From an uncultured Mycoplasmatota bacterium (GTDB lineage: Bacteria; Bacillota_I; Bacilli_A; RF39; UBA660): a stretch of 64,000 nucleotides of DNA. The notes under the pieces were generated by a model, which did no database searches, had not been told where the DNA came from, and was given only the letters and a program-made list of their open reading frames with translations. A program made the position numbers and the translations under genes. The DNA is taken from the NCBI GenBank assembly GCA_900547775.1, contig URHW01000004.1:4806-68805 (forward strand). Reading direction: 5' to 3'. Below are positions 21-17,769 of the stretch, in pieces. Within the stretch, counting starts at the first letter, position 1; every line of letters begins with the position of its first letter.

Positions 21-605
21 CTAATGGTTTCCATGTTTTCTCCTTATGATGTAGTCTAGAGTAAGCCCGCCAATTGTAGAGCATGTAGTAGCAATGATGC
101 AGTATGGTAATACTACTGATGGATTAATACTTCCATAGAAGAGTCTTAATGATATTATGGTTGTTGGCACAATAGTTACTCCACTAGTGTTTAATACTAA
201 AAAGGTTATCATGGCTTCACTGGCAGTTTTTTTATCTTTATTTAATTTTTGAAGGCTTTCCATAGCTTTTAGACCAAATGGAGTTGCAGCGCTACCTAAG
301 CCAGCCATATTTGCAGCTATGTTACTTGCAATAAAACCAAGTGATTCATCACCATCTGGAACGCTAGGAAATATTTTTTTTAAAATTGGCGTCATTATTT
401 TGGATATCCAGGAAATAATACCTGCTTCTTCAGCTATTTTCATAAGTCCCATCCAAATTACTAGAAGTGGTAACATAGAGATAATTAAATCTAAAGCACT
501 TTTACCACTTAATAAAACCTCATTATTGATGGTGCAAAAGTCTTTATTAATAAAACTATAGATTATACCAACAATTATAAATATTCCCCAAATAATGTTT
601 ACCAT
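21..605 (-). CDS. Nucleoside-recognition (Gate) domain membrane protein, spore maturation protein SpmA-like
   Basis: 194 aa, polytopic and hydrophobic. The AANMAGLGSAATPFGLKAM motif is typical of SpmA/Gate-domain proteins. Confidence 0.45.
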   Translation of the reverse strand: MVNIIWGIFIIVGIIYSFINKDFCTINNEVLLSGKSALDLIISMLPLLVIWMGLMKIAEEAGIISWISKIMTPILKKIFPSVPDGDESLGFIASNIAANMAGLGSAATPFGLKAMESLQKLNKDKKTASEAMITFLVLNTSGVTIVPTTIISLRLFYGSINPSVVLPYCIIATTCSTIGGLTLDYIIRRKHGNH

Positions 606-1703: not shown

Positions 1704-3578
1704 CTATTTTACAACGTAAGGATCTTCTGAGGTGCCAGAGCCAGTTACTTCAACATTAGATGCAAGAGAAATTGATGGTCTCAAACCGATAACGGAACCA
1801 GCATAACTATAGAAAAGTTTTCCTGAACTGATGGCCCATAAGTAAGTATTAGAACCGAAATAACTAGGAGATAATGACCACCATACAGTAGTTCCTGTAT
1901 TCTCATATATATACGTAGAACGATTATAAGTATTATAAATAGAGCCAGAAAATGCTATTTCGTCTGCAGTTAATAAGCCTATTTTATAGGTTAGATTTCC
2001 ATTACCATTTGTTGTATCACTTACAGTAAATTTAGATAACTTCCCTCCATTATTATCGTCTAGACATTTTAGCGTTGGTATTTTAGTAGAAACTAATCTG
2101 ATACGCACGTCATAATTTGTAAGATCAGTTCCATATCCATGACCACTAGAAATACTTTTATCATTGCACCATATTGTATCTGCTAGTTTACTTTCATATT
2201 CAGTTAAATTATTTTTATACCAAGTTTCTAAATTTGTAAGGATTGTACTTTTATTTGTATTTGCATGCGTGCTTGCATAATCACTTGCACCAGTTGTTCC
2301 ATACATAAAACCAATATATGCGTTATCGTCATAACTTGAATTAAATGCAGTTTTATACGAATTTTCAGAATACCTTGCAAAAGCTGCTGTTTTACTATTA
2401 TTTGATGCAGAGCAAGGATTAGAAACATTAGATATATTATCATTATGGAGTACAAGTTTAATAGAACCATCACCAGTTATTCTTACTATTCTCCAACACT
2501 TATTTGCAAACTGTACGTAATTATTATTTATAGCACCTCTAAAATAATAACTAGTTCCATAATCATCTTCAGCGCTTGCTAAAATTGCCTCTGTTGTATT
2601 TTTATTGGAAGTTAATTTCTTATATACAAAACTATCTGATGTAGCACTTACTACATAATATACACTGTCTAAATTAGTTGTAGTCTGCATATCTCCTGCT
2701 GTACTTGAGCCTGTATCTGATAAATTCTGACTAGTCAAATATTTACCAACTAAACTTGAATATGAATTAGCATATGTATTATTTGTTACTGCTGTTCCGG
2801 TTAAATCAAACTTCGTACCATTTGCTGTCCACCCTGTACCATATGTTACATAATATGCTTGATATGCTGATGATACAGATGAAGTTTCACTTTCTGTGTC
2901 ATCCAAAGTATATGCACTAACTTCACTACCAGGCACTGTTAAAGGCTCTACTACTTTATTATCAGCAAGTATCGCTTCGTTAAGTGGCATTCCATCAGAT
3001 GCTTCACCAATAACTACTATCTTACCCTCCCATGATTTACCTAATCCTTGATCTAGTGTTACATTTTCATCCATCCAAAGTCTTAAATCAAAACTCTTCT
3101 CTTCATTAGCTTGTAACCCTGTATTAACAATTATATACCCTTTTCTATTATTATCTAAATCTGTTAACTTCTTACTACCTAGTACTATAGACTGTCCATC
3201 AGTAGTTCCTTTAGGTGATATATTAACCTTAATATAATTATCATCTAAATATTTTGTTCCTAAATTACCTCTATGTTCACTATCAATTGTAATATATAGT
3301 CTTATATAGCTACTACAATTATTTTTAAGTGTAAAAGTAAATGGCGTTCCTTTCAATCCTTCACTATCAACTACTGGATAAGCATTCTCTAAAACAATCT
3401 TTTCAGTGTTTTCAGTTAAACTAGTATCAAAACAAGTCCTTGATACAAGAGTATTATTATCACTTTGTTTTAAAAACAATTGAAAAAATGCATATGATAC
3501 ACCAATAATACATATCACAGTAACTAAAAGAGAAAAATAAATCCTAATCTTCTTTTTATCTTTAATAATTTCTTCCAT
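1704..3578 (-). CDS. Paralog 1 of a hypervariable-C-terminus surface protein family (membrane-anchored; DUF1566/C-type-lectin-like C-terminal domain inferred)
   Basis: N-terminal signal-anchor. The N-domain (TRTC..TLTE..PFTFTLKNNC..FDLRLW) is shared with 9959-11542 and 19816-21687. The conserved core FANKCWRIVRITGDGS..LHNDN and a C-terminal YWWSLSP..RPSISL cassette are present. Confidence 0.7.
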   Translation of the reverse strand: MEEIIKDKKKIRIYFSLLVTVICIIGVSYAFFQLFLKQSDNNTLVSRTCFDTSLTENTEKIVLENAYPVVDSEGLKGTPFTFTLKNNCSSYIRLYITIDSEHRGNLGTKYLDDNYIKVNISPKGTTDGQSIVLGSKKLTDLDNNRKGYIIVNTGLQANEEKSFDLRLWMDENVTLDQGLGKSWEGKIVVIGEASDGMPLNEAILADNKVVEPLTVPGSEVSAYTLDDTESETSSVSSAYQAYYVTYGTGWTANGTKFDLTGTAVTNNTYANSYSSLVGKYLTSQNLSDTGSSTAGDMQTTTNLDSVYYVVSATSDSFVYKKLTSNKNTTEAILASAEDDYGTSYYFRGAINNNYVQFANKCWRIVRITGDGSIKLVLHNDNISNVSNPCSASNNSKTAAFARYSENSYKTAFNSSYDDNAYIGFMYGTTGASDYASTHANTNKSTILTNLETWYKNNLTEYESKLADTIWCNDKSISSGHGYGTDLTNYDVRIRLVSTKIPTLKCLDDNNGGKLSKFTVSDTTNGNGNLTYKIGLLTADEIAFSGSIYNTYNRSTYIYENTGTTVWWSLSPSYFGSNTYLWAISSGKLFYSYAGSVIGLRPSISLASNVEVTGSGTSEDPYVVK

Positions 3579-3645
3579 CCTTTTACCCTACTTTCATAAA
3601 ATTATTATATCAAATTATTAATAATTAAAAAAGAAGAAATACAAT

Positions 3646-4260
3646 TTAATTCTTCTGTATTTCTTCAATTATTTTATAAACTTCCGTATAAGGATTAGTT
3701 TCAACCGTCTGTAGTATTCTTCCATTTTCTAATTGAAATTTTTCTAATCTTTTAGCATTAACAATTGCTTTATTTGTATTATTGCAAATCAAAGGATAAA
3801 TATCATAACTTTTATTATAACCAGCACAATGTTTTTTTAATTCTTCTATTACTTCATCATTACTGGAATATTGCGCCGTAGAATAACGATAATGCAATAA
3901 AAACCAAACCTCTACACAAGGTGCTGATACTATAGGAATAATATTATTTTCCTTTGCTAATCTTATTGCTTCACATATTTGTGAATTTTTTTCTGGCTTA
4001 ACATCCGTATCAAACATACAAAATGCTCTGTCATCACCAGTTAAGTCTAAAGATTCTTCTTTAACTTTTGCTATAGTATGCTCCACTAAACTAATTGGAT
4101 CAGTATCATTACCAGGAACTTTTCTAATCACATAATTATTATCTCTTCCATTATAATTTCCTAAGTAGATATCTTCTGTTTTATTTTTACCTTCATAAGA
4201 AACTAATATTGCTCTTTTTGATATTCTGTTTTTTCTATTTCTCTGCCTATCACTACTCAT
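3646..4260 (-). CDS. RloB-like (Toprim-like) protein, partner of AAA_21 ATPase
   Basis: 204 aa. The N-terminal R-rich segment is followed by ILVSYEGKNKTEDIYLG, resembling the RloB consensus ILIVCEGEKTE. It overlaps the upstream ATPase by 4 nt. Confidence 0.6.
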   Translation of the reverse strand: MSSDRQRNRKNRISKRAILVSYEGKNKTEDIYLGNYNGRDNNYVIRKVPGNDTDPISLVEHTIAKVKEESLDLTGDDRAFCMFDTDVKPEKNSQICEAIRLAKENNIIPIVSAPCVEVWFLLHYRYSTAQYSSNDEVIEELKKHCAGYNKSYDIYPLICNNTNKAIVNAKRLEKFQLENGRILQTVETNPYTEVYKIIEEIQKN

Positions 4261-5492
4261 AAATCAAAATTATTAGTTAAAAATGGAATTGCACCATACC
4301 TCCCTAACAAATATCCTTTCTCTACATTTTCAAGTTTTCTTACTGAGAAATCATCTAAAGGATATATTGCACTAGAACCATCATCCGGATTCTTTTCTGC
4401 AAACCAAATCTGATCTCTACGTAATATTTCTAAATTAAGTAAATTAGTATCATGTGTATTAAATATTAACTGAGCACCATTCTTATTAACTTCTGGATTA
4501 TTAAATATCTCAACCAAATACTTTACTATAAATGGATGTAAACTCTTATCAAATTCATCATAAATAAGAACCTTACCATTATCTAAAACATCTTTTAAAA
4601 CTGGTATAAAAGAAAATATAACCTGTGTTCCAAGTGATTCTTCATTAATATCAAATTCATACTTATGTCCATGAATCTCATGAACCGTACTTACTTTAAA
4701 TAAAGATGAATTTAAAGGAATAATAAACCTAAAAGTATCTGGTACTCTATTTAAAATATCTTCAGTCATCTTCTCTTCAGTAACTTTATAATCATCAATA
4801 TTAAAATCTGCTTTTTTTAAAAATCCAAGTGCAAAATCTCTTAACTTATTATCTTTATCTTTTGAATACATATTATAAGAATAATTATTTACTTGTTCAT
4901 AAGACATAATAACACCTAACTTCTCAGTTAAGAAATCAAATGCTGGTTTGGTCTTATCATAATTCCAGTTAGTTGCTGTAGCTACAAAAAATTTATTTGC
5001 TGAATTCTTACTCTTGATATCATTCAATATTCGCTCATCACTAGCATTAAAAGAATATTCATTAGTATTCTTTCTTTCAAATATCTTAGTAGGTCTACCA
5101 TTAGGATAATAATATAAGCTCTCTTCATAAACATATAAATTATCAGCACTAAAAGCATAAACATATCTTATACCATCGTATATAAATTTTATTTCAAACT
5201 CACTAGGTTTATCAGAGGTATCTTCACTTAACTTAAAAGGACTAATTGGCATTGCCATATTAGGAGTTCTGTAATTAGACCCTTTAATTATTGAACCAAC
5301 AATTGCGATTATTTTAAATAAATTAGTCTTACCAGAAGCATTAGCTCCATATAAAGCAGTAGTTCTTAAAAGCCTCTCTCCACCAACTTCCATAACATTA
5401 TTTAAAAGTTCCTTATCACTTGAAGCAACCATACTAAATGTATTCTTATCCTTAAAAGATAAAAAATTTGTAACACTAAACTCTATAAGCAT
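4257..5492 (-). CDS. AAA_21/ABC-type ATPase (OLD/PARIS-AriA-like), candidate defence ATPase
   Basis: Walker A GANASGKTNLF. The central region is long, and C-terminal Walker B/D-loop-like motifs (LIYDEFDKSLHP, FNTHD) are present. It is translationally coupled to the RloB-like gene. Confidence 0.6.
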   Translation of the reverse strand: MLIEFSVTNFLSFKDKNTFSMVASSDKELLNNVMEVGGERLLRTTALYGANASGKTNLFKIIAIVGSIIKGSNYRTPNMAMPISPFKLSEDTSDKPSEFEIKFIYDGIRYVYAFSADNLYVYEESLYYYPNGRPTKIFERKNTNEYSFNASDERILNDIKSKNSANKFFVATATNWNYDKTKPAFDFLTEKLGVIMSYEQVNNYSYNMYSKDKDNKLRDFALGFLKKADFNIDDYKVTEEKMTEDILNRVPDTFRFIIPLNSSLFKVSTVHEIHGHKYEFDINEESLGTQVIFSFIPVLKDVLDNGKVLIYDEFDKSLHPFIVKYLVEIFNNPEVNKNGAQLIFNTHDTNLLNLEILRRDQIWFAEKNPDDGSSAIYPLDDFSVRKLENVEKGYLLGRYGAIPFLTNNFDL

Positions 5493-5638
5493 AGTATCAT
5501 TCCTCTCTAAATGTATTATATGTATTTTTTACTAATAAATCAATTATTTTTACTAATTATTATTAATTTTTTGCACAATTTATGCAAATTTTGCCATTTA
5601 ATTAATAAATTTTACCAATTAAAAAGAGACCTAAGTCT

Positions 5639-7516
5639 CTATTTAACCTCTATATACTTATTAGTTTTATATGCTATATCATTCTCAACAATGAAAATGT
5701 AATACTTACCTGCTTTTAAATCAATAACAGTCTTATCAACCTTACTCTTATCTTTTTCTTTAATAGTATAAACAGCACCATCACTACTATCATTAATAAG
5801 TATCATCTTGGCTTCATCTATATCCATAAATAAAGCATTATTAGTAACAATATTATCACTATAACCAAAGTCTAAACTAATCTCATCACTAGCACTAGCA
5901 ATCTTACTAATAACATCACTAGTAATATCTTCTTTAGGACTAGCTTCTAATGTTGTATAACCTTTAACAGTAGTAAAATCAAAACTTACATCACCATTTA
6001 AATTAACCTTAGTAACAGAATAATAAGCACCCTTAATTCTAAGATTTAAAGTCTCCTTATTATTAGTAACCTCTAATAGTGCAGAAGATAAATTTCCATA
6101 TTCATGAATACTTCCACCCTTACTATAATCTACTCCATCAAGTTCTCTACCAAATAAGATAATATCTTTTCCATTACCAACAGTCTTTAAATCACCTAAA
6201 GCATAACTAAAATACTTCTTATTATCATTATAACTATTAGTAAGTGCTATTTTCTTATCAGTAATAGTATAAGTATTAACGCTAGAATATGAGCCCTTTA
6301 AATTACTTAAATCAGTCTCATTCTTAATAGTACTATAACCATTATCTAAAACCTTTAAAGTATCACCAGAAAGTTTAGCTTGATGCATTGCTTTTGGATA
6401 AACAAAACCATCATCACCCTTTAATAAATAACTATCAAATGTACTAGGTAAATTATCTGGATTAGTAAAGATCCAATTAATCTTAGAATCACTATAGTCT
6501 ATAGATACAACCATTTCTCCACCCCAGTAAGTTAATAATAATGTATCAGTATCTTCATAATACTCTATACCAGAGTTATAAAAGTAATCATCTCTTTCAA
6601 TACCATCAGTAAATGACTTATCAATACTTTCAAATAACTTATAAACATCTATTTGTTTAACTATCTTACCAGTATTCTTATCTATCTCAAGTACTAAATC
6701 AGATATTGTAATTCTATCAGCATTCTTACTAGTAACAATAATATTACCATTACTCTTAACAAAGAAATCATTTAAATATCCACTATCTATTGTATATTCA
6801 TTATAAATTCTTCCTAAATAGTCAATTTCGCGAATAACTGTAGGTAAACCACTAGTACTATCAGTATCAATACCAATAAGTAAATGTCCATTATCTAACA
6901 CTTTAATATTATGATAATAAGTATCATTAAGCATCCATCTAACATTACCATAACCATCTAACCCAAATGAATTCATACTAATTGGACTAGTAAGTAAATA
7001 TAAATCACCTGGAGTAGTAACATTACCACTTTTGGTAGTAACACTAGGAACTTCTACTTTATCAATCTTAATTTTAAATTCTTTAGTAATTTTATCACCC
7101 AACGTAACTACTACTGTATTTTCATAATCTGAATATAAACCATAAACAGGAATATAATGATAATTACTCTTACCATAATTTATTGTAAAATCATCATTAT
7201 TCTTTCCTTTAACAGTTACACTAACTTCCAGACTCTTATCTGTATAAAAGATAATCATTGCACTAAGAGGATTCGCATTATAAGGATTAACATAAACCTT
7301 AGCTCTATCTAAAGTATATTTATTCTTAACAAGTTCATCCTTTAAATAATTATCAACCTCAGCTTGTTCTTTACTACTTAAACTTTGACCAATAACTGTA
7401 TCACCATTAAGTAAATTCTCATGTGTCTTACCACTAAAATACTTAACTAATAATGCACCTACTATAACTACAATAAGTACACCTATTAAAATATAATTCT
7501 TTTTATTCTCCATCAT
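5639..7516 (-). CDS. Membrane-anchored extracellular protein, hypothetical (beta-rich; possibly arylsulfotransferase-like propeller)
   Basis: 625 aa with an N-terminal TM anchor (YILIGVLIVVIVGALLV). It is rich in Y/N/D/G/T. Any fold assignment is weak. Confidence 0.3.
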   Translation of the reverse strand: MMENKKNYILIGVLIVVIVGALLVKYFSGKTHENLLNGDTVIGQSLSSKEQAEVDNYLKDELVKNKYTLDRAKVYVNPYNANPLSAMIIFYTDKSLEVSVTVKGKNNDDFTINYGKSNYHYIPVYGLYSDYENTVVVTLGDKITKEFKIKIDKVEVPSVTTKSGNVTTPGDLYLLTSPISMNSFGLDGYGNVRWMLNDTYYHNIKVLDNGHLLIGIDTDSTSGLPTVIREIDYLGRIYNEYTIDSGYLNDFFVKSNGNIIVTSKNADRITISDLVLEIDKNTGKIVKQIDVYKLFESIDKSFTDGIERDDYFYNSGIEYYEDTDTLLLTYWGGEMVVSIDYSDSKINWIFTNPDNLPSTFDSYLLKGDDGFVYPKAMHQAKLSGDTLKVLDNGYSTIKNETDLSNLKGSYSSVNTYTITDKKIALTNSYNDNKKYFSYALGDLKTVGNGKDIILFGRELDGVDYSKGGSIHEYGNLSSALLEVTNNKETLNLRIKGAYYSVTKVNLNGDVSFDFTTVKGYTTLEASPKEDITSDVISKIASASDEISLDFGYSDNIVTNNALFMDIDEAKMILINDSSDGAVYTIKEKDKSKVDKTVIDLKAGKYYIFIVENDIAYKTNKYIEVK

Positions 7517-7521
7517 CTCAC

Positions 7522-9243
7522 CTACTTTACAATAAATGGATTACTACTAGTTCCATTTCCACCAATAATCTTAGCATTCTTAAGTTGTAATGTTGGTCTT
7601 ACTTTATTAGTATCAGTAACAACACTAGCAGTATCAGTACCACCACCATATGATTTATATGATCCACCAGTAGCAACTGCATAACTACTACTATTAACAT
7701 AATTATTATAAACATGAGCTTCCGGAGTACCATAGTTAAAGTTTGAAGTATCCATATTAAATCCAGTAATCTCAATTAACCAGAAATTCTTACCAGCATT
7801 ACTATTATTAGTTAAATAACTTCTATAACAATTATTACCATTACAATTAGCAACTTTACTATAATCATTCTTACTCATAAGAGCAACCTTAGTATTAAGT
7901 GATCCACCACCAAATACAGTACCAGAAATATATTGATTCTCTACATATCTAGGATTAACTGCACTATAGAAACTATTAACTACATTATCCATAGTATAAC
8001 TAAATGAACCATTCAAATTATGTCCACCTAATCCTTGATAATAATATCTTCCACCATTACAGCATCCACTATACTTACAAGCACCAACTTGTCCATAAAC
8101 TAAATCAGTTCTATTATTATAACTATAAGGATCATTAGCAATTATCTTAATACTATTACCTTTTCTATGATAAATTCTAAATACATAAGAATTATTATTA
8201 AACTTCAAATAATTACTTTCAACTTCACCTTTGTAATAACACTCATCACTCTTACCTGTTTCAGGTGTACAATCATTATTAATAAAATCAATCAAATTAT
8301 CACTAACAACATAATCTAAAGTAAATGGACTAGGAACAGAACCATCACTATTAGTCTTATTATAAGTAATTATTGCACTCTTACTACCAATTGGTTCAGT
8401 AACAAAACCTTTCATTGTAAAATCTGTAATATTATCTACAGGACTAGTAAATTCTTTCTTAGTACCATTCTTATAAGTAACAATTAATGTGACCTTAGTA
8501 TCCTTAGCCCCAAGAACTATCTTATTACCATTCTCATTTAAATAAGCCGTAAAACTATCAACATCAGTCTCACTAGCAGCAACATATACATTTCTAGTCT
8601 TACTAACACTCTTACCATTATAAGTATAAGTATAAACAACACTATAAGTACCAGCCTTAGTAACATCAACATTACAACTAGTAACCTTAATACTATCTCC
8701 CTTAACTAAAGGATAAGTCTTACTAGCATCATTTAAATCAGTTAATACTAACTTACCATACTTAGGATCACTACCATTTAAACCCTTAAACTCATTTTCT
8801 TCAGTACACCAATTACTACCACTAGCATCATAAGCTAAATAAATAGAATCAGCAACTAAATAAGTATTAGTTTCATCTGGTGGATTAAGTTCAAACTCTG
8901 TAGCACCAGTACCACCATTTAAAGTAACACGAACTATTTCATCATCTTTATACTTTTCGCTAGTTTCCTTATTAGTAATATCTTCACTAAGTAGTCCATT
9001 ACTCCTCAAATCACCAATAGTAATATCTACAAAATTATATCCTTCATATAGTTTCTCGATCTCACTCTTATTAGCACTAACATAAGCATCTGCTGCACTA
9101 AGTATCTGCTTAACTGTATCTTTATTATTCTCTTTAGGATCATTCTTACCAACCAAATTAACAATAAAAATACCAACAATAACTGCAATCAGTGCTATAA
9201 CCGCAATTATCTCTACTAATGTAAATCCTTTCTTATTCTTCAT
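7522..9243 (-). CDS. Prepilin-type N-terminal cleavage/methylation domain protein (large type IV pilin-like)
   Basis: N-terminus MKNKKGFTLVEIIAVIALIAVIV is a class III signal (G-F-T-L-V-E plus a hydrophobic helix). The C-terminal region is a 540-aa beta-rich segment. Confidence 0.75.
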   Translation of the reverse strand: MKNKKGFTLVEIIAVIALIAVIVGIFIVNLVGKNDPKENNKDTVKQILSAADAYVSANKSEIEKLYEGYNFVDITIGDLRSNGLLSEDITNKETSEKYKDDEIVRVTLNGGTGATEFELNPPDETNTYLVADSIYLAYDASGSNWCTEENEFKGLNGSDPKYGKLVLTDLNDASKTYPLVKGDSIKVTSCNVDVTKAGTYSVVYTYTYNGKSVSKTRNVYVAASETDVDSFTAYLNENGNKIVLGAKDTKVTLIVTYKNGTKKEFTSPVDNITDFTMKGFVTEPIGSKSAIITYNKTNSDGSVPSPFTLDYVVSDNLIDFINNDCTPETGKSDECYYKGEVESNYLKFNNNSYVFRIYHRKGNSIKIIANDPYSYNNRTDLVYGQVGACKYSGCCNGGRYYYQGLGGHNLNGSFSYTMDNVVNSFYSAVNPRYVENQYISGTVFGGGSLNTKVALMSKNDYSKVANCNGNNCYRSYLTNNSNAGKNFWLIEITGFNMDTSNFNYGTPEAHVYNNYVNSSSYAVATGGSYKSYGGGTDTASVVTDTNKVRPTLQLKNAKIIGGNGTSSNPFIVK

Positions 9244-9251
9244 AAATCCTC

Positions 9252-9818
9252 CTATTTAATTTCCAATATATTATCATGCACAGCACTTGACTTCTCATCA
9301 AAATATCCTAGCATGCTAACACTAAAATCATCAGTTAACCTTTTAAAAGAAATATAAACATTCCCCTTATCAAAATTAACACTTACTCCAGTGACATAAC
9401 CATCACTCACACTTAAATAACAATCATTAGCTTTGCCTTTAATAAACAAACTCTTCAAAAACTCCGGACTAGCTTCACATCTATACCCATCACCACTTTC
9501 ATCTATCTTAAACTTACTAACAATATCACCTAAATTAACATAACTAACATTAGTATCATATCTATAATAACCACCATCTAAAGCATAATACATTCCCTTA
9601 CTATCCATATAGACAGTTCCATCATCATAAATAACCCTACCAACACTCCCATCATAATCAAAACTCCTAGAATAACTATCACCATCATACATAATACCTA
9701 TCCTAGCACTATACTTATCATATACCTTAACACTATCACCCTTATTATAAAAAACAACAAAGATAACCAAACATATAACAACAAGTATACCTATCAAATA
9801 AATATATTTCTTTTTCAT
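9252..9818 (-). CDS. Membrane-anchored hypothetical protein
   Basis: Start chosen at MKKKYIYLIGILVV (TM anchor). The domain is Y/D/G-rich. Confidence 0.4.
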   Translation of the reverse strand: MKKKYIYLIGILVVICLVIFVVFYNKGDSVKVYDKYSARIGIMYDGDSYSRSFDYDGSVGRVIYDDGTVYMDSKGMYYALDGGYYRYDTNVSYVNLGDIVSKFKIDESGDGYRCEASPEFLKSLFIKGKANDCYLSVSDGYVTGVSVNFDKGNVYISFKRLTDDFSVSMLGYFDEKSSAVHDNILEIK

Positions 9819-9958
9819 AATCACCACCAATGTTGAAAACACGTACCAAAAACCTCTACTATTATTATTTATCTCTCTCGCCTGTCCGTTTGTCACTCGA
9901 AGGGTTTCTCAAAGGCTTTTGCGACTGACGATTTCGACCTTATAATTCTTTGCCCTGT

Positions 9959-11542
9959 TTACATACTTATTATGTACGGGGAACTACTGGTTCCTTCTCC
10001 GGTTACGTTGGTAGAGGGCTTAAGAGAAATCGAAGGGCGGACACCGGTGGTGCCATACACGTCGCCACTGCCGAAGCCGCCAAGGCTGCCGACAACGGCC
10101 CAAACGCGAGCGCTGTCACCACTGAAGCTGTAAGGAGACAAGGACCACCAATAATCACTAGTAGCATTTTCTTGTAAATATGTTGTAGAATTAACTAGAT
10201 TAAAAGCGTATCCAGCATATGCTAACTCATCTGCTGTTATTAAACCTATTTTTGAATTTATTTTACTTAGTTCTCCATTACATTTTAAACTAGGGCCCGT
10301 ACCTCCAGCACTTTCACTTGCGCTTACTAATCTTTGCGTAGCACCATAATATGTTTTATTTTTGCCATATCCAAAACCATTTGGTGCCATTCTCCATGGA
10401 TCAAATGTTGTATCTGTTACATTGGTTTTGTCATTGCACCATACAGTATCAGCTATTTTATCAGCATAATCTTTTAAATTATTTGTATACCAAGTTTCTA
10501 AATTAGTTAGTATTGTACTATTATTTGTATTTGCATGTGTAGCTTCATATGTACTAGAACCTGATGTTCCATACTTAAATCCTACATAAGCATTGTCATT
10601 CCAGTTTTCATTAAATTTACTTGTATATGTTGTACTAGAGTATCTTGCAAATGCTGCACTAGCACTATTATTAGCTGAATCACAAGGATTAGCTACTTTT
10701 GTAGTATTATCATTATGTAAGATAAGTTTTACTGAACCATCTCCACTAATTCTTACTATTCTCCAGCACTTATTAGCAAACTGTACATAGTTATTTGTTA
10801 CAGCTCCTCTAAAGTAGTATGATGTACCATTATTATCTTCTGCAGATGCAAGTAATGCTTCATCAGCAGTAGATACTGCTGCTCCTGGTTTAGTTATTGG
10901 AGCCTTAACTTCATTATTAGCTAATATAGTCTCTGCAAAAGTAGGTTCATCCGCAGCAACTATACTAACAACTATCTTACCTTTCCAAGTTTTATTTAAC
11001 CCTTGTTCATTAGTTGTTTCTGAATCTAACCAAAGTCTTAAATCAAAAGATTTTGCTTCTTTATTTTTAAGTCCTGTGGTTTTAAGTACATATCCTTGCG
11101 TATTAGTATCTACTTCCCCTAAAGAAAGTGTACTCAAGATTACTGAACTGCCATCATTAGTCCCTTTAGTTGATAAATTAGATTTAACATAATTATCTTT
11201 TAAATAAGCAGTGTTAGTACTAGTTCTATATTCACTAACTAGTGCTATAGTCACTTTTACATAACTATCACAATTATTAGTTAATGTAAAAGTAAATGGT
11301 GATTGTTTAAGTCCATCTTCATCACTAATTGGAAAAGCATCAGATAATACAATTTCACTTGTCTCTTCTGTTAAAGTGGTATTTAAACAAGTTCTTGTAC
11401 CAATAACATTACTATTAGTTTGAGTTTTAGTAATTCTATAATAAGCATAAGTTACTCCGATAAGTACTAATACAGTTACAAGTAACCCATATAAAATTGT
11501 TCTTTTCTTCTTTTCATTCTCTATAATATCCATTAGCCTCAC
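9959..11542 (-). CDS. Paralog 2 of the hypervariable surface protein family; putative DGR target
   Basis: Same N-domain and core as paralogs 1 and 3, without the roughly 100-aa central insertion. The C-terminal cassette at about 10030-10135 is GC-rich and NNC-codon-rich. Confidence 0.75.
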   Translation of the reverse strand: MRLMDIIENEKKKRTILYGLLVTVLVLIGVTYAYYRITKTQTNSNVIGTRTCLNTTLTEETSEIVLSDAFPISDEDGLKQSPFTFTLTNNCDSYVKVTIALVSEYRTSTNTAYLKDNYVKSNLSTKGTNDGSSVILSTLSLGEVDTNTQGYVLKTTGLKNKEAKSFDLRLWLDSETTNEQGLNKTWKGKIVVSIVAADEPTFAETILANNEVKAPITKPGAAVSTADEALLASAEDNNGTSYYFRGAVTNNYVQFANKCWRIVRISGDGSVKLILHNDNTTKVANPCDSANNSASAAFARYSSTTYTSKFNENWNDNAYVGFKYGTSGSSTYEATHANTNNSTILTNLETWYTNNLKDYADKIADTVWCNDKTNVTDTTFDPWRMAPNGFGYGKNKTYYGATQRLVSASESAGGTGPSLKCNGELSKINSKIGLITADELAYAGYAFNLVNSTTYLQENATSDYWWSLSPYSFSGDSARVWAVVGSLGGFGSGDVYGTTGVRPSISLKPSTNVTGEGTSSSPYIISM

Positions 11543-11780
11543 CTACTATAAACAATTATAAATGATAAGTATCTTTTAATCAAGGCTCTTTAATTTAATT
11601 TAATGAAAATTATAAAAAAAAGATAACTTCATGATATCAATAGTTATCTTACTTAAATCTTGCTTAAATCCTACTTAAATTAATTTTTATAATACATCTA
11701 ATTTCTTTATAATAATGAGTATTAAAACAATATTATAACTTTACCAAAAACCTACAAAATTATTTGACATTTACATTTAA

Positions 11781-11958
11781 AAGCAGCAAAAAACAGCAAA
11801 AAAGCAGCAAAAAAGCAGCAAAAAAACAGCAAAAAAACAGCAAAAAGCAGCAAAAAAGAAGCAAAAAACAGCAAAAAACAGCAAAAAGTAGCAAAAAAAC
11901 AGCAAAAAGCAGCAAAAAAACAGCAAAAAACAGCAAAAAAACAGCAAAAGTAGCAAAA
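11781..11958. repeat. Tandem A-tract repeat (about 16 units of cagcaaaaaa(c/g), 10-12 bp period)
   Basis: Direct reading. Phased A5-7 tracts lie between the stop of 11962-13632 and the promoter region of paralog 2. Confidence 0.9.
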
Positions 11959-11961
11959 CTA

Positions 11962-13632
11962 CTACTTCAATTTCCAACAAGAATGACCTGATTTATTATC
12001 ATGATAAATTTTTCCTTCTTTCTTCAATAAATCTAATAGATACCTAACTCGGCTTAGTTTAGTGCCTTCATCTAATGAATTAGGTAACTTATCTTTAAGT
12101 AAAGAAATAATTTCTTTTCTACTTGCTGAACCATATTCTTTTATATATTTAATTATTAGTTCCATATAAAACTCATTTTCTAATCCAGAATTATAAACAT
12201 ACTCTTCCTTCTTTTCTGTTAAGCTAGCAAGACTTGATGAAATATAAATGTTTGGATATCTTCCTTCAATTAAATGTTCTTTTTTTAGATAATCACTTTG
12301 CTCTTTACTTATCGTATATCTCTTTTGTAATCTATCAAGTAATATTATTGCACTAATATCTAAGTTAGTTCTTTCAAATAACAATCTACTATAATTTTCA
12401 TCAATTATTTTTCCATATAATGTTACAATAACTCGGTTAGAATTACTTAAATCATAATCAGGCATTGGAAAATATTTTTTCTTTTGAATATCATAAACTC
12501 GTTTAATTCCACTACCAACTGTATCTATCATATTCAAATTAACCATCGCACTTATTAAAAAAGGATTCCTATAATATGGAGAAGAATATCCATCTTTTAA
12601 AACGTTCTCAATTGTTTCCGGAATAAAACTGCCTTCATTTATGATCATCAATCTATCTGAATATTCAATTATATTAATGTTTCCATGAAGTCTGTAATCT
12701 TGATGAGCAATACAATTATTAATTAACTCACGAAGAATATAATTATCATACTTATCTACTTCATAAGGAAATAAAGTTGCATCACTAATCATGTATCTAT
12801 ACTTTAAATTTCTAATCTTAGATTTTATTTTATCAATATTAATAATAAAAGGTATTCCAAAATGTTCATAATCAATCACATTAAAATCATCATAAAGTTT
12901 CCACGTCATTCGTGGAATATATCCTTCCATCAAATAATCATAATCACTATTTCCTAAAAGCAACATACAAGCCATAGTTATCTTATTATTAATTGTTAAT
13001 CTTGCTTTATTTAAAAATTCAATATCAGTCAAATTATCAACTTCATCTATTAATTTATCATCTTTATGTTTAACTTTAAATTGTTCTCTAGCAACTTTAA
13101 TTGCACCTTTATCAAGATTATCTATTGTAGTTTCTTCAAGAACTTGTCTTGACCAATCATAATTTATAGTAGTTTTAATTTGTTCAATCTTATTTAGTGA
13201 TAAAGGAGATAATGATTCGCCTATTCTTCCATAAGGAAACCCTTTCCAATTAATTGGAGTTCCAGAGGCGGCTGGTACTTGAAACATTATCACTCTTTTA
13301 CCATTAACAACAATTGTATAAATTTCAATAAAACTTATATTATCCGTAGTATTATCAGAAATTTGTTTTTTCACCTTATTAAAATCATTATCTATGCAAT
13401 AATTAGTACTAGTTAACTCATGTGTTTTATCATCAACACCAAATATTATCCAAGAATAAAGTTTGTTTTTTAAATTAGCTTCATTAGCTAAAGCTGAGAA
13501 ATATTTTCCTAAGGTATCAACATCAAAATTATTCTTAGCTCTTTTAAACTCAACACATTCATTTTCAGAAACTTTTAATAGATTACTTAATATTACAAGT
13601 AGCTCCTCAGTTGTCTTATACAAACTTATCAC
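11962..13632 (-). CDS. AlbA_2 (Schlafen-like) plus HATPase_c_4-type putative transcriptional regulator
   Basis: 556 aa. The N-terminal divergent AAA-4/AlbA_2-like region (ECVEFKRAKNNFD) is followed by an ATPase-like region and a C-terminal wHTH-like tail. Confidence 0.5.
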   Translation of the reverse strand: MISLYKTTEELLVILSNLLKVSENECVEFKRAKNNFDVDTLGKYFSALANEANLKNKLYSWIIFGVDDKTHELTSTNYCIDNDFNKVKKQISDNTTDNISFIEIYTIVVNGKRVIMFQVPAASGTPINWKGFPYGRIGESLSPLSLNKIEQIKTTINYDWSRQVLEETTIDNLDKGAIKVAREQFKVKHKDDKLIDEVDNLTDIEFLNKARLTINNKITMACMLLLGNSDYDYLMEGYIPRMTWKLYDDFNVIDYEHFGIPFIINIDKIKSKIRNLKYRYMISDATLFPYEVDKYDNYILRELINNCIAHQDYRLHGNINIIEYSDRLMIINEGSFIPETIENVLKDGYSSPYYRNPFLISAMVNLNMIDTVGSGIKRVYDIQKKKYFPMPDYDLSNSNRVIVTLYGKIIDENYSRLLFERTNLDISAIILLDRLQKRYTISKEQSDYLKKEHLIEGRYPNIYISSSLASLTEKKEEYVYNSGLENEFYMELIIKYIKEYGSASRKEIISLLKDKLPNSLDEGTKLSRVRYLLDLLKKEGKIYHDNKSGHSCWKLK

Positions 13633-13737: not shown

Positions 13738-16700
13738 TTAACTCTGAGTTCCATCATTTGTTTCTACTGTTATATCATAATCTGTATCATAATAGTAATT
13801 ACTAAATAAAACATTTGAATTATTAATAACTGTTCTTATACCTAAGTCTCCTCTACCATATATAGCGTTTCTTTCAATAGATTTAACACTATCAGTTAAA
13901 GTTATTGTCTTAAGTATAATATTATTCATAAGTGCATAACTACTAATATTTTCTGCATCTATTACATATTCTAACTTCTCATAATAACTAGGAACACTTA
14001 TTAAAGTCGTACCATCCTTATTAAACAATACTCCATCTCTGCTACTATAATTATTATTATCAGCACTAACTATAAATTTATTTATATTTAGGTTTATTCT
14101 TGATTCTATACTAGTAACAGAGCTTGGCACACTTAAACTCATCTTCTTATCATCAGCACTTACTAATCCATTTAATGAGTCATATATAATTCTCGTTGTT
14201 CCTTCTCTAATTTGTACATCTCCTTCAAGTTTATCAGGAACTAAAATAAGTGTATCCCCATTATATAATATATTATTTTCTACTTCTAAAGTACTTGCTT
14301 TTATTTCTTTAAAGTTAACTCCCCTAAATGGTGCTATACCTACATAAGCATTTCCTATATCAGCACTCTTACCCTTAAAGTTATAAAACGCATAATCTCC
14401 AATAGTTTGAACACTTCTAGGAATAACAATATCACCTAAACTACTATCTATAAAAGCATAATCTCTAATATATTCTAAGCCTTCATTAAATGTTATATTA
14501 CTTAAACTAGTATTTGTACTAAAAGCATACTGCTCAATAGTTCTAACCGAACTTCCTATAGTAACACTAGTAAGACCTAAATTATTAGCAAATGCTCTCT
14601 TACCAATCTTTTCACTATTAACATTAAGCATCTTTAAACTAGTACTTTCAAAGGCCGATGTTCCAATAGATTTAACACTTGATGGAATATTAATATTAGT
14701 AATACCAGTTCCATAAAATGCATTATTACCAATACTACTAACATTATTCCCAATAACAATATTATTAATTTGGCTCGCATAATTATCCCAAGGAGCGCTT
14801 ATAAAATCTTGCATATCTCCGGTTCCATACACGCTTAATGTATAACCATTACTTCCATCTATCACTTTGTTACTATATAAAAATGCGATTACATCTTCTT
14901 TATTATTCTTACCGATCTTATAATAATTCACATATTCATGCTCTGCACTTACTATCTCACTAGTAGTACGCTTTTGATTAACTAAGCCATATATATCTCT
15001 AACTGCACCATCACTTAAAGTTAATGTAAATAGTCCATAATAATTATTTGCTTTTACCACTACTTCAAATCGGTATCCATTAGTAATATCTTTAACCTTA
15101 GTAACACTATCAACTAAAACACCATTACTAGCACTAATCATACCCTTATCAAGAGATGCACTAGCAAGTCCTCCACCAATATCCGTACATTCCAAATACG
15201 CCTTACCAGTTCCATAAATATCACTTGGTACATCAGTAAACATACAACTAGGTGCTGGATTATCTGCAATAGCATAATAAGTAGTTCCTTTATTTCTACT
15301 ATTAATTGTAACTGTACTTCCAATATTTTTAATGTTTCCACCACTAGGACTTGTACTCCATCCCTTTTTAGTTATTCCATCTGGAACACTAAAGTCAGGT
15401 AATGTAACTGTGCATCCTGAACCTAACCTACTTTCTGTACAAGTAAGTGTTGTCTCACCAAGAGTTCCATAAGTTCCCCCATTTAAATTAATTTGAAATA
15501 CATTAGTAACATATATAGGTATTCTAAGTTCTCCACAATCTGCACCTTTAATAACTAAATATGTAGTTCCAGTTCTGTATGATCTTATCTTTATCTTATC
15601 AGTAAACACCTTATTAATATTATCAGGTTCATATGAGAAATTACTTTGTGATACCACATTAACACTTGCTGTCCAACTATTACTAACACTATAACTAAGT
15701 TTGCCAGTAGCAGCATAACTAATTGTAATCTCTGCACTTTCCCTATTAACACCTAAAGTAATTGAATTTAGATTACTTTTTAAAGAATAAACATTATAAT
15801 CAAGTTCAGCAAGTCTATTACCATTATTTTCTCTTAAGTAAATAACTGCTTTACCCGTATTAGTTCTTCCTAACTTATAAGGAAGACTACTATCATACTG
15901 CGTACTAGTAACATTATGTCTTACTAATGACATCTGTCCATATCTTCCACCATTATTGGCACAATTATTACTTAAACTAATCGCTGGCTGACTAGGATTA
16001 TTACCTAAATCTACTAAATAATAATCAGTCATACTATCAAACACTATATTATTCTTCGTACTATCACAAGTCTTACCACTACTATCTAATACTCCCAAAT
16101 TAATCCCATGAATTGTAATGGTATTATTACTAAGATCAGAACCAACCTCTTTACACACTTTAGTAACCGTATTATTATTCTCTCTAAAATATAAACTTGT
16201 CTTATAAATAACTGGTATAAATATATCTAATGAGCCATCTCTTACACTCTTAACATTAACTTTAAAATCTTCTACATTATCATAAATATCTTCACCATTA
16301 GTGGTCTCTAAAATAACTGTATCATTTTCTATATGACAATTTAAATAATCAGTATTTTCTTCATATCCACCATAAGTACTTTTCTTATAAACAGTGCAAG
16401 TAAAATCATTACTAGAGCTTCCGTTTATCTTAGACTTAAACTGTGTCTTATCATTATTTTGTCTTCTTCCCCCATTAAAATATAAATATTCTGGTATATC
16501 TGTATTATCTAATTTAATATTTGAAACATTAACCTCAAAACTAGTTTCACCACAAATTGATCCTTTTATTCTAATGGTAACAGTTCCAATACTATTTCCT
16601 TTTATATAAAAGTAATTCTGATTATTTAAAGTTATTGTACTTCCAAATGAACTATTATTTGCTGATATACTAGCAGCACTACTATCAACTGATACAGTAA

Positions 16701-17769
16701 TTCTTCCTGTACCACCAGCCTTAAGTTCTACTCTCTTAGCAGCCTCACCTACAATAACATTCGTAATATGCGTTACTACATCTAAATCATAAACTTCTCT
16801 AGTTATAACCTTACTAATACCTGCATGATCTTCAGTTATCGTAAAACTTTTCTCACCTGTACTAGTACCACTATTCATATATAGAACGTCTCCCTTTATA
16901 GTAGCATTCAAATCATCACTAATCCCACTAAGAGAAAACTCGCCATAATTCTTCCCCGTAATCCTAAAAAGTTCATTAGTAAGTGTTTTCATACACATCT
17001 TAGGTGTATATCCATCTATATCATAATTAACAACATACACCCCTAAATTCATATGTCGATATAACTTCTTTTCTGCTCCTTCATCATCTCTGTATGTACC
17101 AGTTACTTGTACTTGATAATTTCCATCACTTCCAGTACCATTATCATTTAAAGTAATAACTAAATCATCACCAACAACTTTACAACTAAATGGACCTGTC
17201 GCTTCACATGTAATACTTTTAAAAGTTCCTTTAGTATAAATCTTAGTTTTAAATTCCTCATGAAGTCCCCAATAAAAATCTTTCTTTGTAGTTCCTAAAT
17301 TAAGTGAATAATTACCATCAACTGCTGGACATGAATAATTCTTATTTTTTATATCATAAAAAGTAGCACTTATCGTTACTGTAGATGGATCATAACATAA
17401 AAGAACATTACCACTGAGTCTTCCACCAGTAACTGGATTGCCAACATAACTAGCATCATCTTTAGTAGTATCATACTCTAAATAACCTAGACCTACTAAA
17501 TCATCAACACTTATTATGCACTCATCATACGCATCATCATTAATAACTCCAGATTCTAACCCATTAGTACACTTCTGATAAGTATTAATATTATCTTCAC
17601 CATACTTAGAAGCACTAGTTTCAATAGTACTAATCTTAGAATTTAAAATACTCTCTTTTGTATTTTTTGAAATATTAGTAACCGCTGGTATCAAAATAAC
17701 CATAATAATTGCAAGTATTGTAATAACTGCAAGAAGTTCCACCATTGTAAAACCCTTATGGTTCTTCAT
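13738..17769 (-). CDS. Giant prepilin-type N-terminal domain protein with Ig-like middle region and C-terminal BspA-type leucine-rich repeats
   Basis: N-terminus MKNHKGFTMVELLAVITILAIIMV is a class III signal. The C-terminal 350 aa carry repeated IPSSV.SIG..AF LRR_5-like units. Confidence 0.75.
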   Translation of the reverse strand: MKNHKGFTMVELLAVITILAIIMVILIPAVTNISKNTKESILNSKISTIETSASKYGEDNINTYQKCTNGLESGVINDDAYDECIISVDDLVGLGYLEYDTTKDDASYVGNPVTGGRLSGNVLLCYDPSTVTISATFYDIKNKNYSCPAVDGNYSLNLGTTKKDFYWGLHEEFKTKIYTKGTFKSITCEATGPFSCKVVGDDLVITLNDNGTGSDGNYQVQVTGTYRDDEGAEKKLYRHMNLGVYVVNYDIDGYTPKMCMKTLTNELFRITGKNYGEFSLSGISDDLNATIKGDVLYMNSGTSTGEKSFTITEDHAGISKVITREVYDLDVVTHITNVIVGEAAKRVELKAGGTGRITVSVDSSAASISANNSSFGSTITLNNQNYFYIKGNSIGTVTIRIKGSICGETSFEVNVSNIKLDNTDIPEYLYFNGGRRQNNDKTQFKSKINGSSSNDFTCTVYKKSTYGGYEENTDYLNCHIENDTVILETTNGEDIYDNVEDFKVNVKSVRDGSLDIFIPVIYKTSLYFRENNNTVTKVCKEVGSDLSNNTITIHGINLGVLDSSGKTCDSTKNNIVFDSMTDYYLVDLGNNPSQPAISLSNNCANNGGRYGQMSLVRHNVTSTQYDSSLPYKLGRTNTGKAVIYLRENNGNRLAELDYNVYSLKSNLNSITLGVNRESAEITISYAATGKLSYSVSNSWTASVNVVSQSNFSYEPDNINKVFTDKIKIRSYRTGTTYLVIKGADCGELRIPIYVTNVFQINLNGGTYGTLGETTLTCTESRLGSGCTVTLPDFSVPDGITKKGWSTSPSGGNIKNIGSTVTINSRNKGTTYYAIADNPAPSCMFTDVPSDIYGTGKAYLECTDIGGGLASASLDKGMISASNGVLVDSVTKVKDITNGYRFEVVVKANNYYGLFTLTLSDGAVRDIYGLVNQKRTTSEIVSAEHEYVNYYKIGKNNKEDVIAFLYSNKVIDGSNGYTLSVYGTGDMQDFISAPWDNYASQINNIVIGNNVSSIGNNAFYGTGITNINIPSSVKSIGTSAFESTSLKMLNVNSEKIGKRAFANNLGLTSVTIGSSVRTIEQYAFSTNTSLSNITFNEGLEYIRDYAFIDSSLGDIVIPRSVQTIGDYAFYNFKGKSADIGNAYVGIAPFRGVNFKEIKASTLEVENNILYNGDTLILVPDKLEGDVQIREGTTRIIYDSLNGLVSADDKKMSLSVPSSVTSIESRINLNINKFIVSADNNNYSSRDGVLFNKDGTTLISVPSYYEKLEYVIDAENISSYALMNNIILKTITLTDSVKSIERNAIYGRGDLGIRTVINNSNVLFSNYYYDTDYDITVETNDGTQS

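Follow-up and report, generated by a model that had tools for sequence, protein, structure and literature searches.

We assign two overlapping reverse-strand genes, found in a 64,000-nucleotide stretch of DNA (the window), to the AbiL (AbiLi/AbiLii) family, an assignment that profile matches and gene order make close to certain, and we predict that they probably form an AbiL-family defence module. The pair is a further member of a known family, an ordinary one that any DefenseFinder or PADLOC run could find, and the chief value of the result is one of annotation, in that it adds AbiL to the known gene content of a low-GC human-gut lineage that is uncultured. Bacteria of this lineage are met in Hadza and other cohorts.

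Organisation and family of the gene pair

The 411-aa product of the upstream gene matches Pfam AAA_21 (PF13304) over its full length (profile positions 2-304 of 304, E 1.4e-38), in agreement with the original prediction of an AAA_21 ATPase, and is matched by the PADLOC AbiLi model with an E-value of 1.7e-93 (311 bits). Its PADLOC AriA match (E 5.6e-37) has coordinates identical to those of the generic Pfam AAA_21 match, and the PADLOC Old match is weak (E 9e-4). Walker A reads as originally quoted (GANASGKT), and the long insertion expected before Walker B is present, the latter motif lying around 250 residues C-terminal of the former. The Walker A, signature, Walker B and H-loop motifs are at least 95% conserved among 79 homologues with 35-100% identity. 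A sequence search of the ATPase against PDB chains gave no match at E <= 0.01.

The original prediction had also hung on RloB similarity in the product of the downstream gene. This 204-aa protein matches Pfam RloB (PF13707) over profile positions 1-195 of 195 (E 6e-36) and the PADLOC AbiLii model (E 6e-22), and the arginine-rich start followed by an RloB-like motif was recovered as MSSDRQRNRKNRISKR, then ILVSYEGKNKTEDIY. The earlier proposal of a candidate anti-phage module is supported. The arrangement is that of AbiL, a bicistronic unit of neighbouring same-strand genes with an AbiLi-type AAA_21 ATPase first and an AbiLii-type RloB protein second. Coordinates of the genes, their motifs and the associated regulatory signals are collected in the table.

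Table. Features of the AbiL-type pair and its surroundings; nucleotide positions are those of the window
Feature	Position	Strand	Basis or details
abiLi-like gene, 411-aa AAA_21 (ABC/SMC-type) ATPase	4257..5492	-	ORF, ATG start; PF13304, PADLOC AbiLi
abiLii-like gene, 204-aa RloB-family protein, putative Toprim-like nuclease effector	3646..4260	-	ORF, ATG start; PF13707, AbiLii
ATGA overlap, 4 nt	4257..4260	-	ATPase-gene stop TGA 4259-4257 over RloB-gene start ATG 4260-4258
Putative operon promoter	5543..5515	-	-35 TTGATT 5543-5538, 17-nt spacer, -10 TATAAT 5520-5515; 10/12 match
Ribosome-binding site GAGAGGA	5507..5501	-	8 nt 5' of ATG at 5492
Hairpin over RloB stop codon	3627..3666	-	12-bp stem 3666-3633, then UUUUUU 3632-3627; folding
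Terminator of upstream ASST gene, AGAGACTTAGGTCTCT + T-run	5615..5640 (hairpin 5640..5625)	-	terminator scan
Strain-variable cassette, ~1.9 kb	3618..5532	-	window vs L102, L105, L106, L110, L112
Walker A, G49-ANASGKT-56 (G49-T56)	5325-5348	-	ATPase motif
Signature-like motif, E285-SLGTQ-290	ATPase residues 285-290
Walker B, V308-LIYDE-313 (V308-E313)	4554-4571	-	ATPase motif
H-loop, T346-H347	ATPase residues 346-347
Family-specific C-terminal block, RRDQIWFAEK	ATPase residues 358-367
R/K-rich N-terminus	RloB protein residues 1-16
Alpha/beta core	RloB protein residues 16-124
Invariant core residues	RloB protein E23-G24, E29, D54, D84-x-D86, block S112-x-P-C-x-E117-x-W-x-L-L-H123
C-terminal helical domain	RloB protein residues 134-202

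The predicted 4-nt overlap of the two genes is present as ATGA, the junction reading ...GAT TTA TGA. Since the RloB-gene start is preceded by no Shine-Dalgarno sequence, we infer that translation of this gene is coupled to that of the ATPase gene. Overlapping or nearly abutting junctions also occur in most homologous loci, where start codons were picked by a nearest-start heuristic. The intergenic region 5493-5638, originally described as an AT-rich promoter region, contains the hairpin terminator of the ASST gene, a promoter-like site and a ribosome-binding site. Shuffled versions of this AT-rich DNA yield about as many promoter-like matches (18.8 expected against 20 observed). The TTGATT-17-TATAAT site is accordingly a plausible operon promoter, and this part of the earlier description holds to that extent. 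At the other end of the operon, the hairpin over the RloB stop codon folds with a minimum free energy of -11.4 kcal/mol (z = -2.78), a value equalled by one of 200 shuffles, and is probably the intrinsic terminator; it was missed by a simple terminator scan because its stem is AT-rich. The sole terminator-like site returned by that scan, with 0.2 expected, was that of the ASST gene. The ASST ORF itself spans 625 aa, and gene callers start it at the second methionine (624 aa).

The pairing is conserved well beyond the window. ATPase homologues were located at 80 loci from several phyla, among them Bacilli, Clostridia, cyanobacteria, rhizobia and others, and an ORF matching the RloB profile is present at 73 of these, mostly directly downstream of the ATPase gene. 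Alternative effectors were rejected for most of the loci lacking RloB, given an IS insertion between the ATPase and RloB genes in one (L063) and truncated RloB genes in four (L060, L038, L008 and L026). Another locus, L019, has a 138-aa ORF together with an AlbA_2 protein where RloB is expected. Homologues are scattered across phyla in unrelated contexts, including plasmids and prophages, and a P2-like Klebsiella prophage carries an AAA_21 and RloB pair at the old/tin defence hotspot, where P2 itself carries old.

The RloB-family protein as a candidate nuclease

Invariant columns of the RloB-family protein were read from alignments of 12 and 61 homologues, and E23, D54, D84xD86 and E117 are invariant throughout the larger set, down to 29% identity. 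An AF2 model of the protein (pLDDT 90.1, pTM 0.85) places strands at residues 16-22, 43-49, 78-84 and 108-113 in four beta-alpha units and puts the acidic residues where strands end, E23 following strand 1 and D84xD86 ending strand 3. The Toprim definition of Aravind 1998 reportedly comprises a glutamate after the first strand, a DxD after the third and a four-stranded alpha/beta core, and this residue pattern is present in the RloB protein in the modelled strand order. The core has these hallmark acidic residues, and we consider the protein most likely to be a metal-dependent nuclease acting as the toxic effector. The acidic residues are furthermore colinear with VEGKTE, VDGKG, DCD and GDIE in the Toprim domain of P2 Old.

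Structure searches did not confirm a Toprim fold for RloB. Foldseek of the full model against the PDB gave no match at E <= 0.001, with generic Rossmann-like folds ranked above weak topoisomerase II matches, and comparison of RloB with PDB chains gave noise only, whether one sequence or a profile of 61 sequences was used. An hhalign comparison with P2 Old was marginal (P = 3.8e-4, 36% probability) and ambiguous in register, and used a shallow profile, as a search started from the C-terminus of P2 Old gave just five mostly fragmentary matches and viral contigs yielded only Old relatives 73-100% identical. The P2 Old Toprim region did not retrieve the solved OLD structures by phmmer, and the fetched loci contained no OLD-like ORFs. 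By HMM, none of the RloB-family members scanned matches OLD-like_TOPRIM or DUF4435; when 61 members were scanned leniently against Pfam (E <= 10) for secondary Toprim-clan matches, isolated weak matches were seen to DUF3854 in two and to DUF4276 in one, and DUF4435 was not among the 25 families that matched the most members. The RloB family is large, with 9,492 representatives at 50% clustering. Neither a structure nor a substrate is known to have been established for any AbiL/RloB system, and sequence and profile searches detect no solved relative; compact, well-conserved pairs such as the present one are reasonable candidates for biochemistry.

A strain-variable slot

Comparison with sister strains, as proposed originally, revealed a presence/absence polymorphism: the pair is accessory within the species, being present in seven of 12 informative contigs and absent from the other five. 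Alleles of the site were gathered by a metagenome scan. Between occupied and unoccupied alleles, homology ends on the ASST side after ...GATTTATTA (~5533) and restarts at AATTTGATAYAATA (~3617), in the promoter region that precedes the paralog gene downstream; these boundaries were judged by eye and are accurate to a few bases. On its left the slot is bordered by the ASST terminator. In other alleles the interval between ASST and the paralog contains filler sequence, a minimal spacer or, in one strain, a candidate defence gene whose HIRAN protein matches the PADLOC PDC-M03B model (E 2e-54). A second copy of the ASST terminator element brackets an alternative cargo gene in L110. Two further contigs were rejected as slot alleles, one (L117) because its assembly is chimeric and passes into high-GC DNA, and the other (L119) as a different locus with just a signal peptide in common. 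The natural alleles at this one site (AbiL, the HIRAN PDC-M03B-like gene, filler and empty spacer) offer material for following, at population level, how defence genes are gained and lost in gut metagenomes.

Where present, the pair is under purifying selection, as seen in its coding sequences. Relative to strain L001 it has 98% DNA identity (flanking genes 95%); the ATPase gene has 21 nucleotide differences, and by tblastn the ATPase is 99.5% identical (2 changes in 411 aa) and the RloB protein 98% (about 4 in 204 aa). A local deviation in GC or codon usage, which had been suggested as a check, was not observed: the pair has a GC content of 0.27-0.28 and a GC3 of 0.14-0.15, compared with 0.27 and 0.13 in the neighbouring ASST gene. 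No compositional signature of horizontal transfer was found, nor were mobile-element genes or compositional anomalies around the pair. Its surroundings are surface-protein and housekeeping genes and not a classical defence island, and its neighbours are ASST, pilin-like, paralog and housekeeping genes in each of the eight contigs that are listed for exactly this ATPase protein.

Proposed mechanism and relation to known systems

In PARIS, AriA holds AriB sequestered until a phage trigger frees it (PMC11464382, PMC13064643), and this system is the best available mechanistic model for the pair. The two genes would form one operon with its own promoter, a chromosomal AbiL-type anti-phage module in which the ABC/SMC-like AAA_21 ATPase, like AriA, would most likely serve as both infection sensor and keeper of RloB. 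The ATGA overlap, with no separate ribosome-binding site, would tie synthesis of RloB to translation of the ATPase, such that the effector would never be made without its partner. During infection, the ATPase would respond to a trigger derived from the phage with a change of state that releases or activates the RloB nuclease. The nuclease would then cleave nucleic acid of the host, the phage or both, either DNA or, following PARIS, tRNA, so that phage production is halted while the infected cell is sacrificed. In its details, this sensor and caged-nuclease scheme could equally well prove right or wrong. A bolder conjunction, which we consider unlikely, is that RloB would be a trigger-released RNase directed at tRNA or another translation component, like AriB, and not a DNase, and that the module would at the same time, in this species, be one interchangeable cargo of a small slot bounded by a terminator repeat. 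If the first part were true, AbiL/RloAB would represent a second, independently derived family of ATPase-caged Toprim RNases; if the second were true, recombination at the slot, which lies in a cluster of hypervariable pilin-like surface-protein genes, would swap receptor variation and abortive defence together.

Tight ATGA coupling is typical of toxin-antitoxin operons and the pair is accessory and strain-variable, features that would also suit a module whose main role was addiction, with RloB as toxin and the ATPase as antitoxin stabilising their own DNA segment and no dedicated role in phage defence. AAA-ATPase/TOPRIM_OLD pairs did score as toxin-neutraliser, toxin-antitoxin-like pairs in E. 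coli assays (PMC10440598), and AbiLii of F. nucleatum is toxic in E. coli (PMC3985639). However, AbiLi supplied in trans did not neutralise AbiLii toxicity and L. lactis AbiLii showed no toxicity in E. coli (Dy 2014, PMC3985639), so the picture of the ATPase as antitoxin is not general. Toxin-antitoxin behaviour is in any case compatible with phage defence, PARIS being both (PMC13064643), and a related pair occupies a known prophage defence hotspot, the slot described here alternates with another candidate defence gene, and experiments have shown lactococcal AbiL to be an Abi system with a measured anti-phage phenotype (Deng 1999, as cited in PMC13064643). We therefore judge a primarily addictive role improbable.

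Membership of the RloB Pfam family, named after restriction-modification-linked ORFs of Campylobacter hsd loci (PMC10440598, PMC13064643), could suggest an RloA/RloB-type accessory that modulates or backs up type I restriction and is not autonomous. The Campylobacter jejuni RloA/RloB of type I loci share this family with the pair and are linked to hsd, whereas the pair has no hsd linkage within the window: the genes scanned up to ~20 kb away in both directions, and the larger ORFs of the remaining window, contained no hsd or other restriction-modification domain, and the ASST, pilin-like, paralog and housekeeping neighbourhood in all eight listed contigs likewise speaks against such a role, which we consider very improbable.

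RecR, primases and topoisomerases contain Toprim domains. A housekeeping role in DNA repair or chromosome maintenance, with a RecF/Rad50-like ATPase and a Toprim nuclease serving host DNA metabolism, would draw on this, on the Rad50/SMC-like structure of AAA_21 ATPases (PMC11464382, PMC13064643) and on the native-like composition and codon usage, but is hardly credible for a pair that is dispensable, as its absence from five of the 12 informative contigs indicates, whose homologues are dispersed as described and whose best profile matches are defence-system models.

The reading as an AbiL-type defence module is consistent with the literature, in which AbiL is classed among the ABC-ATPase and TOPRIM defence systems beside PARIS, OLD and Gabija (Burman 2024, PMC11464382), and the biochemical mechanism is not established for any AbiL/RloB system (PMC13064643). 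The OLD family (P2 Old, class 1/2) and GajA of Gabija combine an ABC ATPase with a Toprim nuclease in defence, as the pair is predicted to do, but carry both domains in one polypeptide, whereas here they are separate genes. OLD-like_TOPRIM (PF20469) was found in P2 Old and not in RloB, and the 204-aa protein has no significant Old match, on which grounds a (split) OLD system was rejected. Among the PADLOC matches listed for either protein there is no Gabija model, and no GajB UvrD-like helicase gene is adjacent. PARIS (AriA/AriB) is, as proposed for the pair, a split system of sensor and effector, in which an ABC-type ATPase (AAA_15/AAA_21) is followed by a small Toprim-type effector. Its effector is DUF4435 (PF14491), the partner used in its detection rule (Rousset 2022, PMC9122126), whereas the effector here is RloB (PF13707); the ATPase is of the PARIS type, but the 204-aa protein has no DUF4435 match at E <= 0.01 and no PADLOC AriB match, and the pair is for this reason not PARIS. 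AriB and AbiLii themselves have no significant sequence similarity and superpose poorly (PMC13064643). The parallel with PARIS and split OLD nucleases drawn in the original prediction thus stands for the ATPase-plus-Toprim-like architecture and gives way to AbiL as the precise family.

The closest likeness is to AbiL of the Lactococcus lactis plasmid pND861 and the AbiL of PADLOC and DefenseFinder, drawn here through profile models. The lactococcal system is plasmid-borne in a dairy bacterium, whereas the present pair sits on the chromosome of a low-GC gut bacterium that is uncultured and carries the label 'Bacilli'. They have in common the order of an ATPase followed by an RloB-family protein, and AbiLii, at 206 aa (PMC13064643), is similar in size to the 204-aa protein described here.

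Family assignment and structure of the gene pair

The original prediction, made from sequence alone, had described an AAA_21 ATPase gene coupled to an RloB-like gene and had likened the pair to PARIS and to split OLD-family nucleases. Both protein assignments were borne out, since the 411-aa protein matched Pfam AAA_21 (E 1.4e-38) and the 204-aa protein matched Pfam RloB (E 6e-36), in each case end to end. The top PADLOC models were AbiLi for the ATPase (E 1.7e-93) and AbiLii for the RloB protein (E 6e-22). Pfam and PADLOC profiles for AriB/DUF4435 and OLD-like_TOPRIM gave no match to the pair or to the RloB family members that were also scanned, and the PADLOC 'AriA' match of the ATPase had coordinates identical to those of the generic AAA_21 profile match. 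Since AbiLi and AbiLii are the best models and the AriB/DUF4435 and OLD-like_TOPRIM profiles are unmatched, we classify the pair by its sequence as an AbiL-type system and reject both PARIS and split OLD as its identity.

Both open reading frames lie exactly where predicted, and the junction sequence, GAT TTA TGA, confirms the proposed 4-nt overlap: because the downstream ATG occupies 4260-4258, the two genes share the bases ATGA. This junction contains no purine-rich ribosome-binding site ahead of the RloB start. The 146-bp region 5' of the ATPase gene (5493-5638), proposed to be its promoter region, holds a terminator hairpin, a promoter-like site and a ribosome-binding site. The promoter-like site is only plausible as the promoter of the pair, because such matches are not enriched in this AT-rich DNA (20 found versus 18.8 expected from shuffles). 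A hairpin of 12 bp, with U6 after it, overlaps the RloB stop codon (free energy -11.4 kcal/mol, z = -2.8) and is probably the end of the operon. The tails of the ASST (arylsulfotransferase-family) and RloB terminators have the common end TTTTTAATT.

Features of the gene pair and its upstream region (nucleotide positions in the window; residue numbers for protein motifs)
Feature	Position	Strand	Detail
ATPase ORF	5492..4257	minus	411 aa
RloB ORF	4260..3646	minus	204 aa
ASST protein gene	5639-7516		arylsulfotransferase family
Hairpin terminator of preceding ASST gene	5640..5625		sole terminator-like hairpin from the scan
Promoter-like site	5543..5515		TTGATT-17-TATAAT, upstream of ATPase gene
Ribosome-binding site	8 nt 5' of ATPase ATG		GAGAGGA
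ATPase Walker A	49-56		G49-ANASGKT-56
ATPase ABC signature-like motif	285-290		ESLGTQ
ATPase Walker B	308-313		308-VLIYDE-313
ATPase H-loop	346-347		T346-H347
ATPase family-specific block			RRDQIWFAEK

None of the five ATPase motifs is disrupted, and each shows conservation of at least 95% across 79 homologues of 35-100% identity. In the RloB protein E23-G24, E29, D54, D84-x-D86 and S112-x-PC-x-E117-x-W-x-LLH123 are invariant or nearly so among 61 homologues, with identity down to 29%. A confident AlphaFold2 model of RloB, derived from this homologue alignment (pLDDT 90.1, pTM 0.85), predicts four beta-alpha units with a helical domain C-terminal to them, and would place E23 directly past strand 1 and D84xD86 where strand 3 ends. 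Toprim domains have their metal-binding residues at these two places. The RloB motifs are colinear with VEGKTE, VDGKG, DCD and GDIE of the phage P2 Old Toprim domain, and in both the first two acidic positions lie 31 residues apart. Comparison by hhalign of a 202-sequence RloB alignment with a shallow P2 Old profile stayed marginal (P = 3.8e-4, 36% probability, ambiguous register). In Foldseek searches of the PDB the full model had no hit at E <= 0.001, and both it and the core-only model retrieved only Rossmann-like folds of a generic kind, topoisomerase II appearing at E 0.015-0.03. Sequence and profile searches detected no relative of solved structure for RloB, a family of 9,492 representatives (50% clustering, E <= 0.001).

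Pairing in bacteria, plasmids and phages

Scanning one genome per species yielded 489 relatives of the ATPase. The best 80 of these loci come from Bacilli, Clostridia, 'Tenericutes'-labelled MAGs, cyanobacteria, rhizobia, Acidobacteria and others, and 73 contain an RloB-profile ORF, in most cases immediately 3' of the ATPase gene, with junctions that mostly overlap or nearly abut when start codons are picked by a nearest-start heuristic. Several loci lacking an intact RloB gene look like decay: among the loci fetched for comparison (L-numbers), L063 has an IS insertion between the genes, and L060 and L038 have truncated RloB genes. At L019, a distant relative (11772-13202) of the window's 556-aa Schlafen/AlbA_2 + HATPase_c_4 protein adjoins an AbiLi homologue without RloB.

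ATPase relatives occur in 180 plasmid records and RloB relatives in phages. The Klebsiella P2-like prophage ST13-OXA48phi12.1 (MK422453.1; L090 2641-4627) carries an AAA_21+RloB pair between its replication endonuclease and portal genes, the position corresponding to that of old and tin in P2, which has been described as a defence hotspot (Rousset 2022, PMC9122126). A pair of 44% and 36% identity in a distant 'uncultured Bacilli' MAG (L042 4324-8086) is followed by a gene ~30% identical to the surface-protein paralogs that flank the pair in the window, an adjacency reflecting either coincidence or conserved linkage in the lineage.

A variable slot in a surface-protein gene cluster

The window is syntenic with, and ~92% identical to, CAKOOK010000003.1, a contig of a MAG labelled 'uncultured Bacilli' that was assembled from Hadza gut samples. 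DNA identity is 98% for the pair and ~95% for the flanking genes, with only 2/411 residues changed in the ATPase and ~4/204 in RloB (tblastn 99.5% and 98%), as purifying selection would lead one to expect. In the assembly collection, 160 blocks contain the exact ATPase protein, and all 8 of the places listed have the context ASST, ATPase, RloB, 624-aa paralog, Peptidase_S11 and housekeeping genes.

Presence or absence in sister strains, a check suggested in the original prediction, was surveyed by anchoring on the ASST gene and not on the pair, so that the 12 informative contigs are an unbiased sample. The interval between ASST and the 624-aa paralog (in the window, 3579-3645 and 5493-5638) occurs in at least four allelic forms within the species: the AAA_21+RloB pair (7/12), a filler of ~170 bp that has a hairpin of its own (3/12; L102, L105, L106), a minimal 153-bp spacer (1/12; L112) and a gene for a 227-aa HIRAN protein (1/12; L110:4496-5179). 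The HIRAN protein matches Pfam HIRAN (E 5.5e-12) and the PADLOC candidate PDC-M03B (E 2e-54), and its gene has a copy of the ASST terminator repeat on each side. Between occupied and unoccupied alleles homology stops near 5533 and restarts near 3617, delimiting a cassette of ~1.9 kb. Because the alleles vary among the 12 contigs and the cassette has these borders, the pair is accessory cargo of a small variable slot. The scanned neighbour genes include no integrase or transposase, and the suggested check for compositional deviation found no difference from the neighbours in GC, GC3 or codon usage. In L117 (OLXM01000293.1), low-GC sequence with a pilin-like gene and ASST residues 1-100 gives way to high-GC genes, and this contig was rejected as almost certainly a chimeric metagenome assembly.

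The surrounding genes form an unusual pseudopilin-like surface-protein cluster. Prepilin-type N-terminal methylation motifs are present in several of its proteins (7522-9243, 13738-17769, 17780-18316), including a 1343-aa BspA-type LRR protein and a 573-aa Ig-like-domain protein. The paralogs (1704-3578, 624 aa; 9959-11542, 527 aa) are ~50% identical to each other and have one N-terminal hydrophobic segment and no Pfam match; between strains, DNA identity is 93-97% in their N-terminal parts versus 70-78% in the hypervariable C-terminal halves of both. Some contigs have the 624-aa paralog gene split by frameshifts (74+550, 176+428, 355+200 aa), a finding suggestive of phase or antigenic variation. 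GC reaches 0.41 at 9751-10500 (window mean 0.30), where the 3' portion of the 527-aa paralog gene varies between strains and is 77-78% identical to the related-strain locus L001. Between this paralog and a gene for a 556-aa Schlafen/AlbA_2 + HATPase_c_4 protein (11962-13632) lies a tandem repeat (11779-11949; 21-nt unit AAAAGCAGCAAAAAAACAGCAA, 10/11-nt sub-period, ~8 copies) that differs in length from L001 (72 gap columns). Strains differ in the 556-aa protein, some having it at full length and others a remnant of ~138 aa, and its gene may be a second strain-variable defence-related gene.

Proposed action and relation to known systems

The analysis shows AbiL family membership, intact catalytic motifs, conserved pairing, selection on both genes and accessory distribution; the mechanism that we propose goes beyond these and is based on analogy with PARIS, OLD and Gabija and on the limited AbiL literature. 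Most likely, the ATPase would be sensor and keeper of RloB, itself most likely a metal-dependent nuclease effector acting on DNA or on tRNA/RNA. Coupling through ATGA would restrict effector synthesis to that alongside the ATPase partner, and a phage cue would most likely switch the ATPase, so that the nuclease is freed or activated and infection aborted. A table in PMC13064643, citing Deng 1999, gives lactococcal AbiL an Abi phenotype and action after phage transcription. AbiLii of F. nucleatum is toxic in E. coli, and AbiLi in trans had no neutralising effect (PMC3985639); related AAA/TOPRIM_OLD pairs act as toxin-antitoxin pairs (PMC10440598). It is possible that the pair is purely an addiction module, a role that is not mutually exclusive with defence. 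A restriction-modification accessory is unlikely because no restriction-modification domain was found in the genes scanned within ~20 kb to either side or among the larger ORFs elsewhere in the window, and the dispensability of the pair in the species makes a housekeeping repair function unlikely.

The observation behind the original prediction is thus confirmed and its anti-phage interpretation supported. The family name is corrected to AbiL; PARIS-like action of AbiL and RloAB is described as still to be determined in a 2026 review (PMC13064643). The pair is of a known kind and would be annotated by standard defence-finder tools. To that kind it adds, in a small way, well-defined natural presence/absence alleles at a slot bounded by terminators, inside a cluster of hypervariable surface-protein genes, and it raises the biochemistry of the RloB effector family as a question for study.
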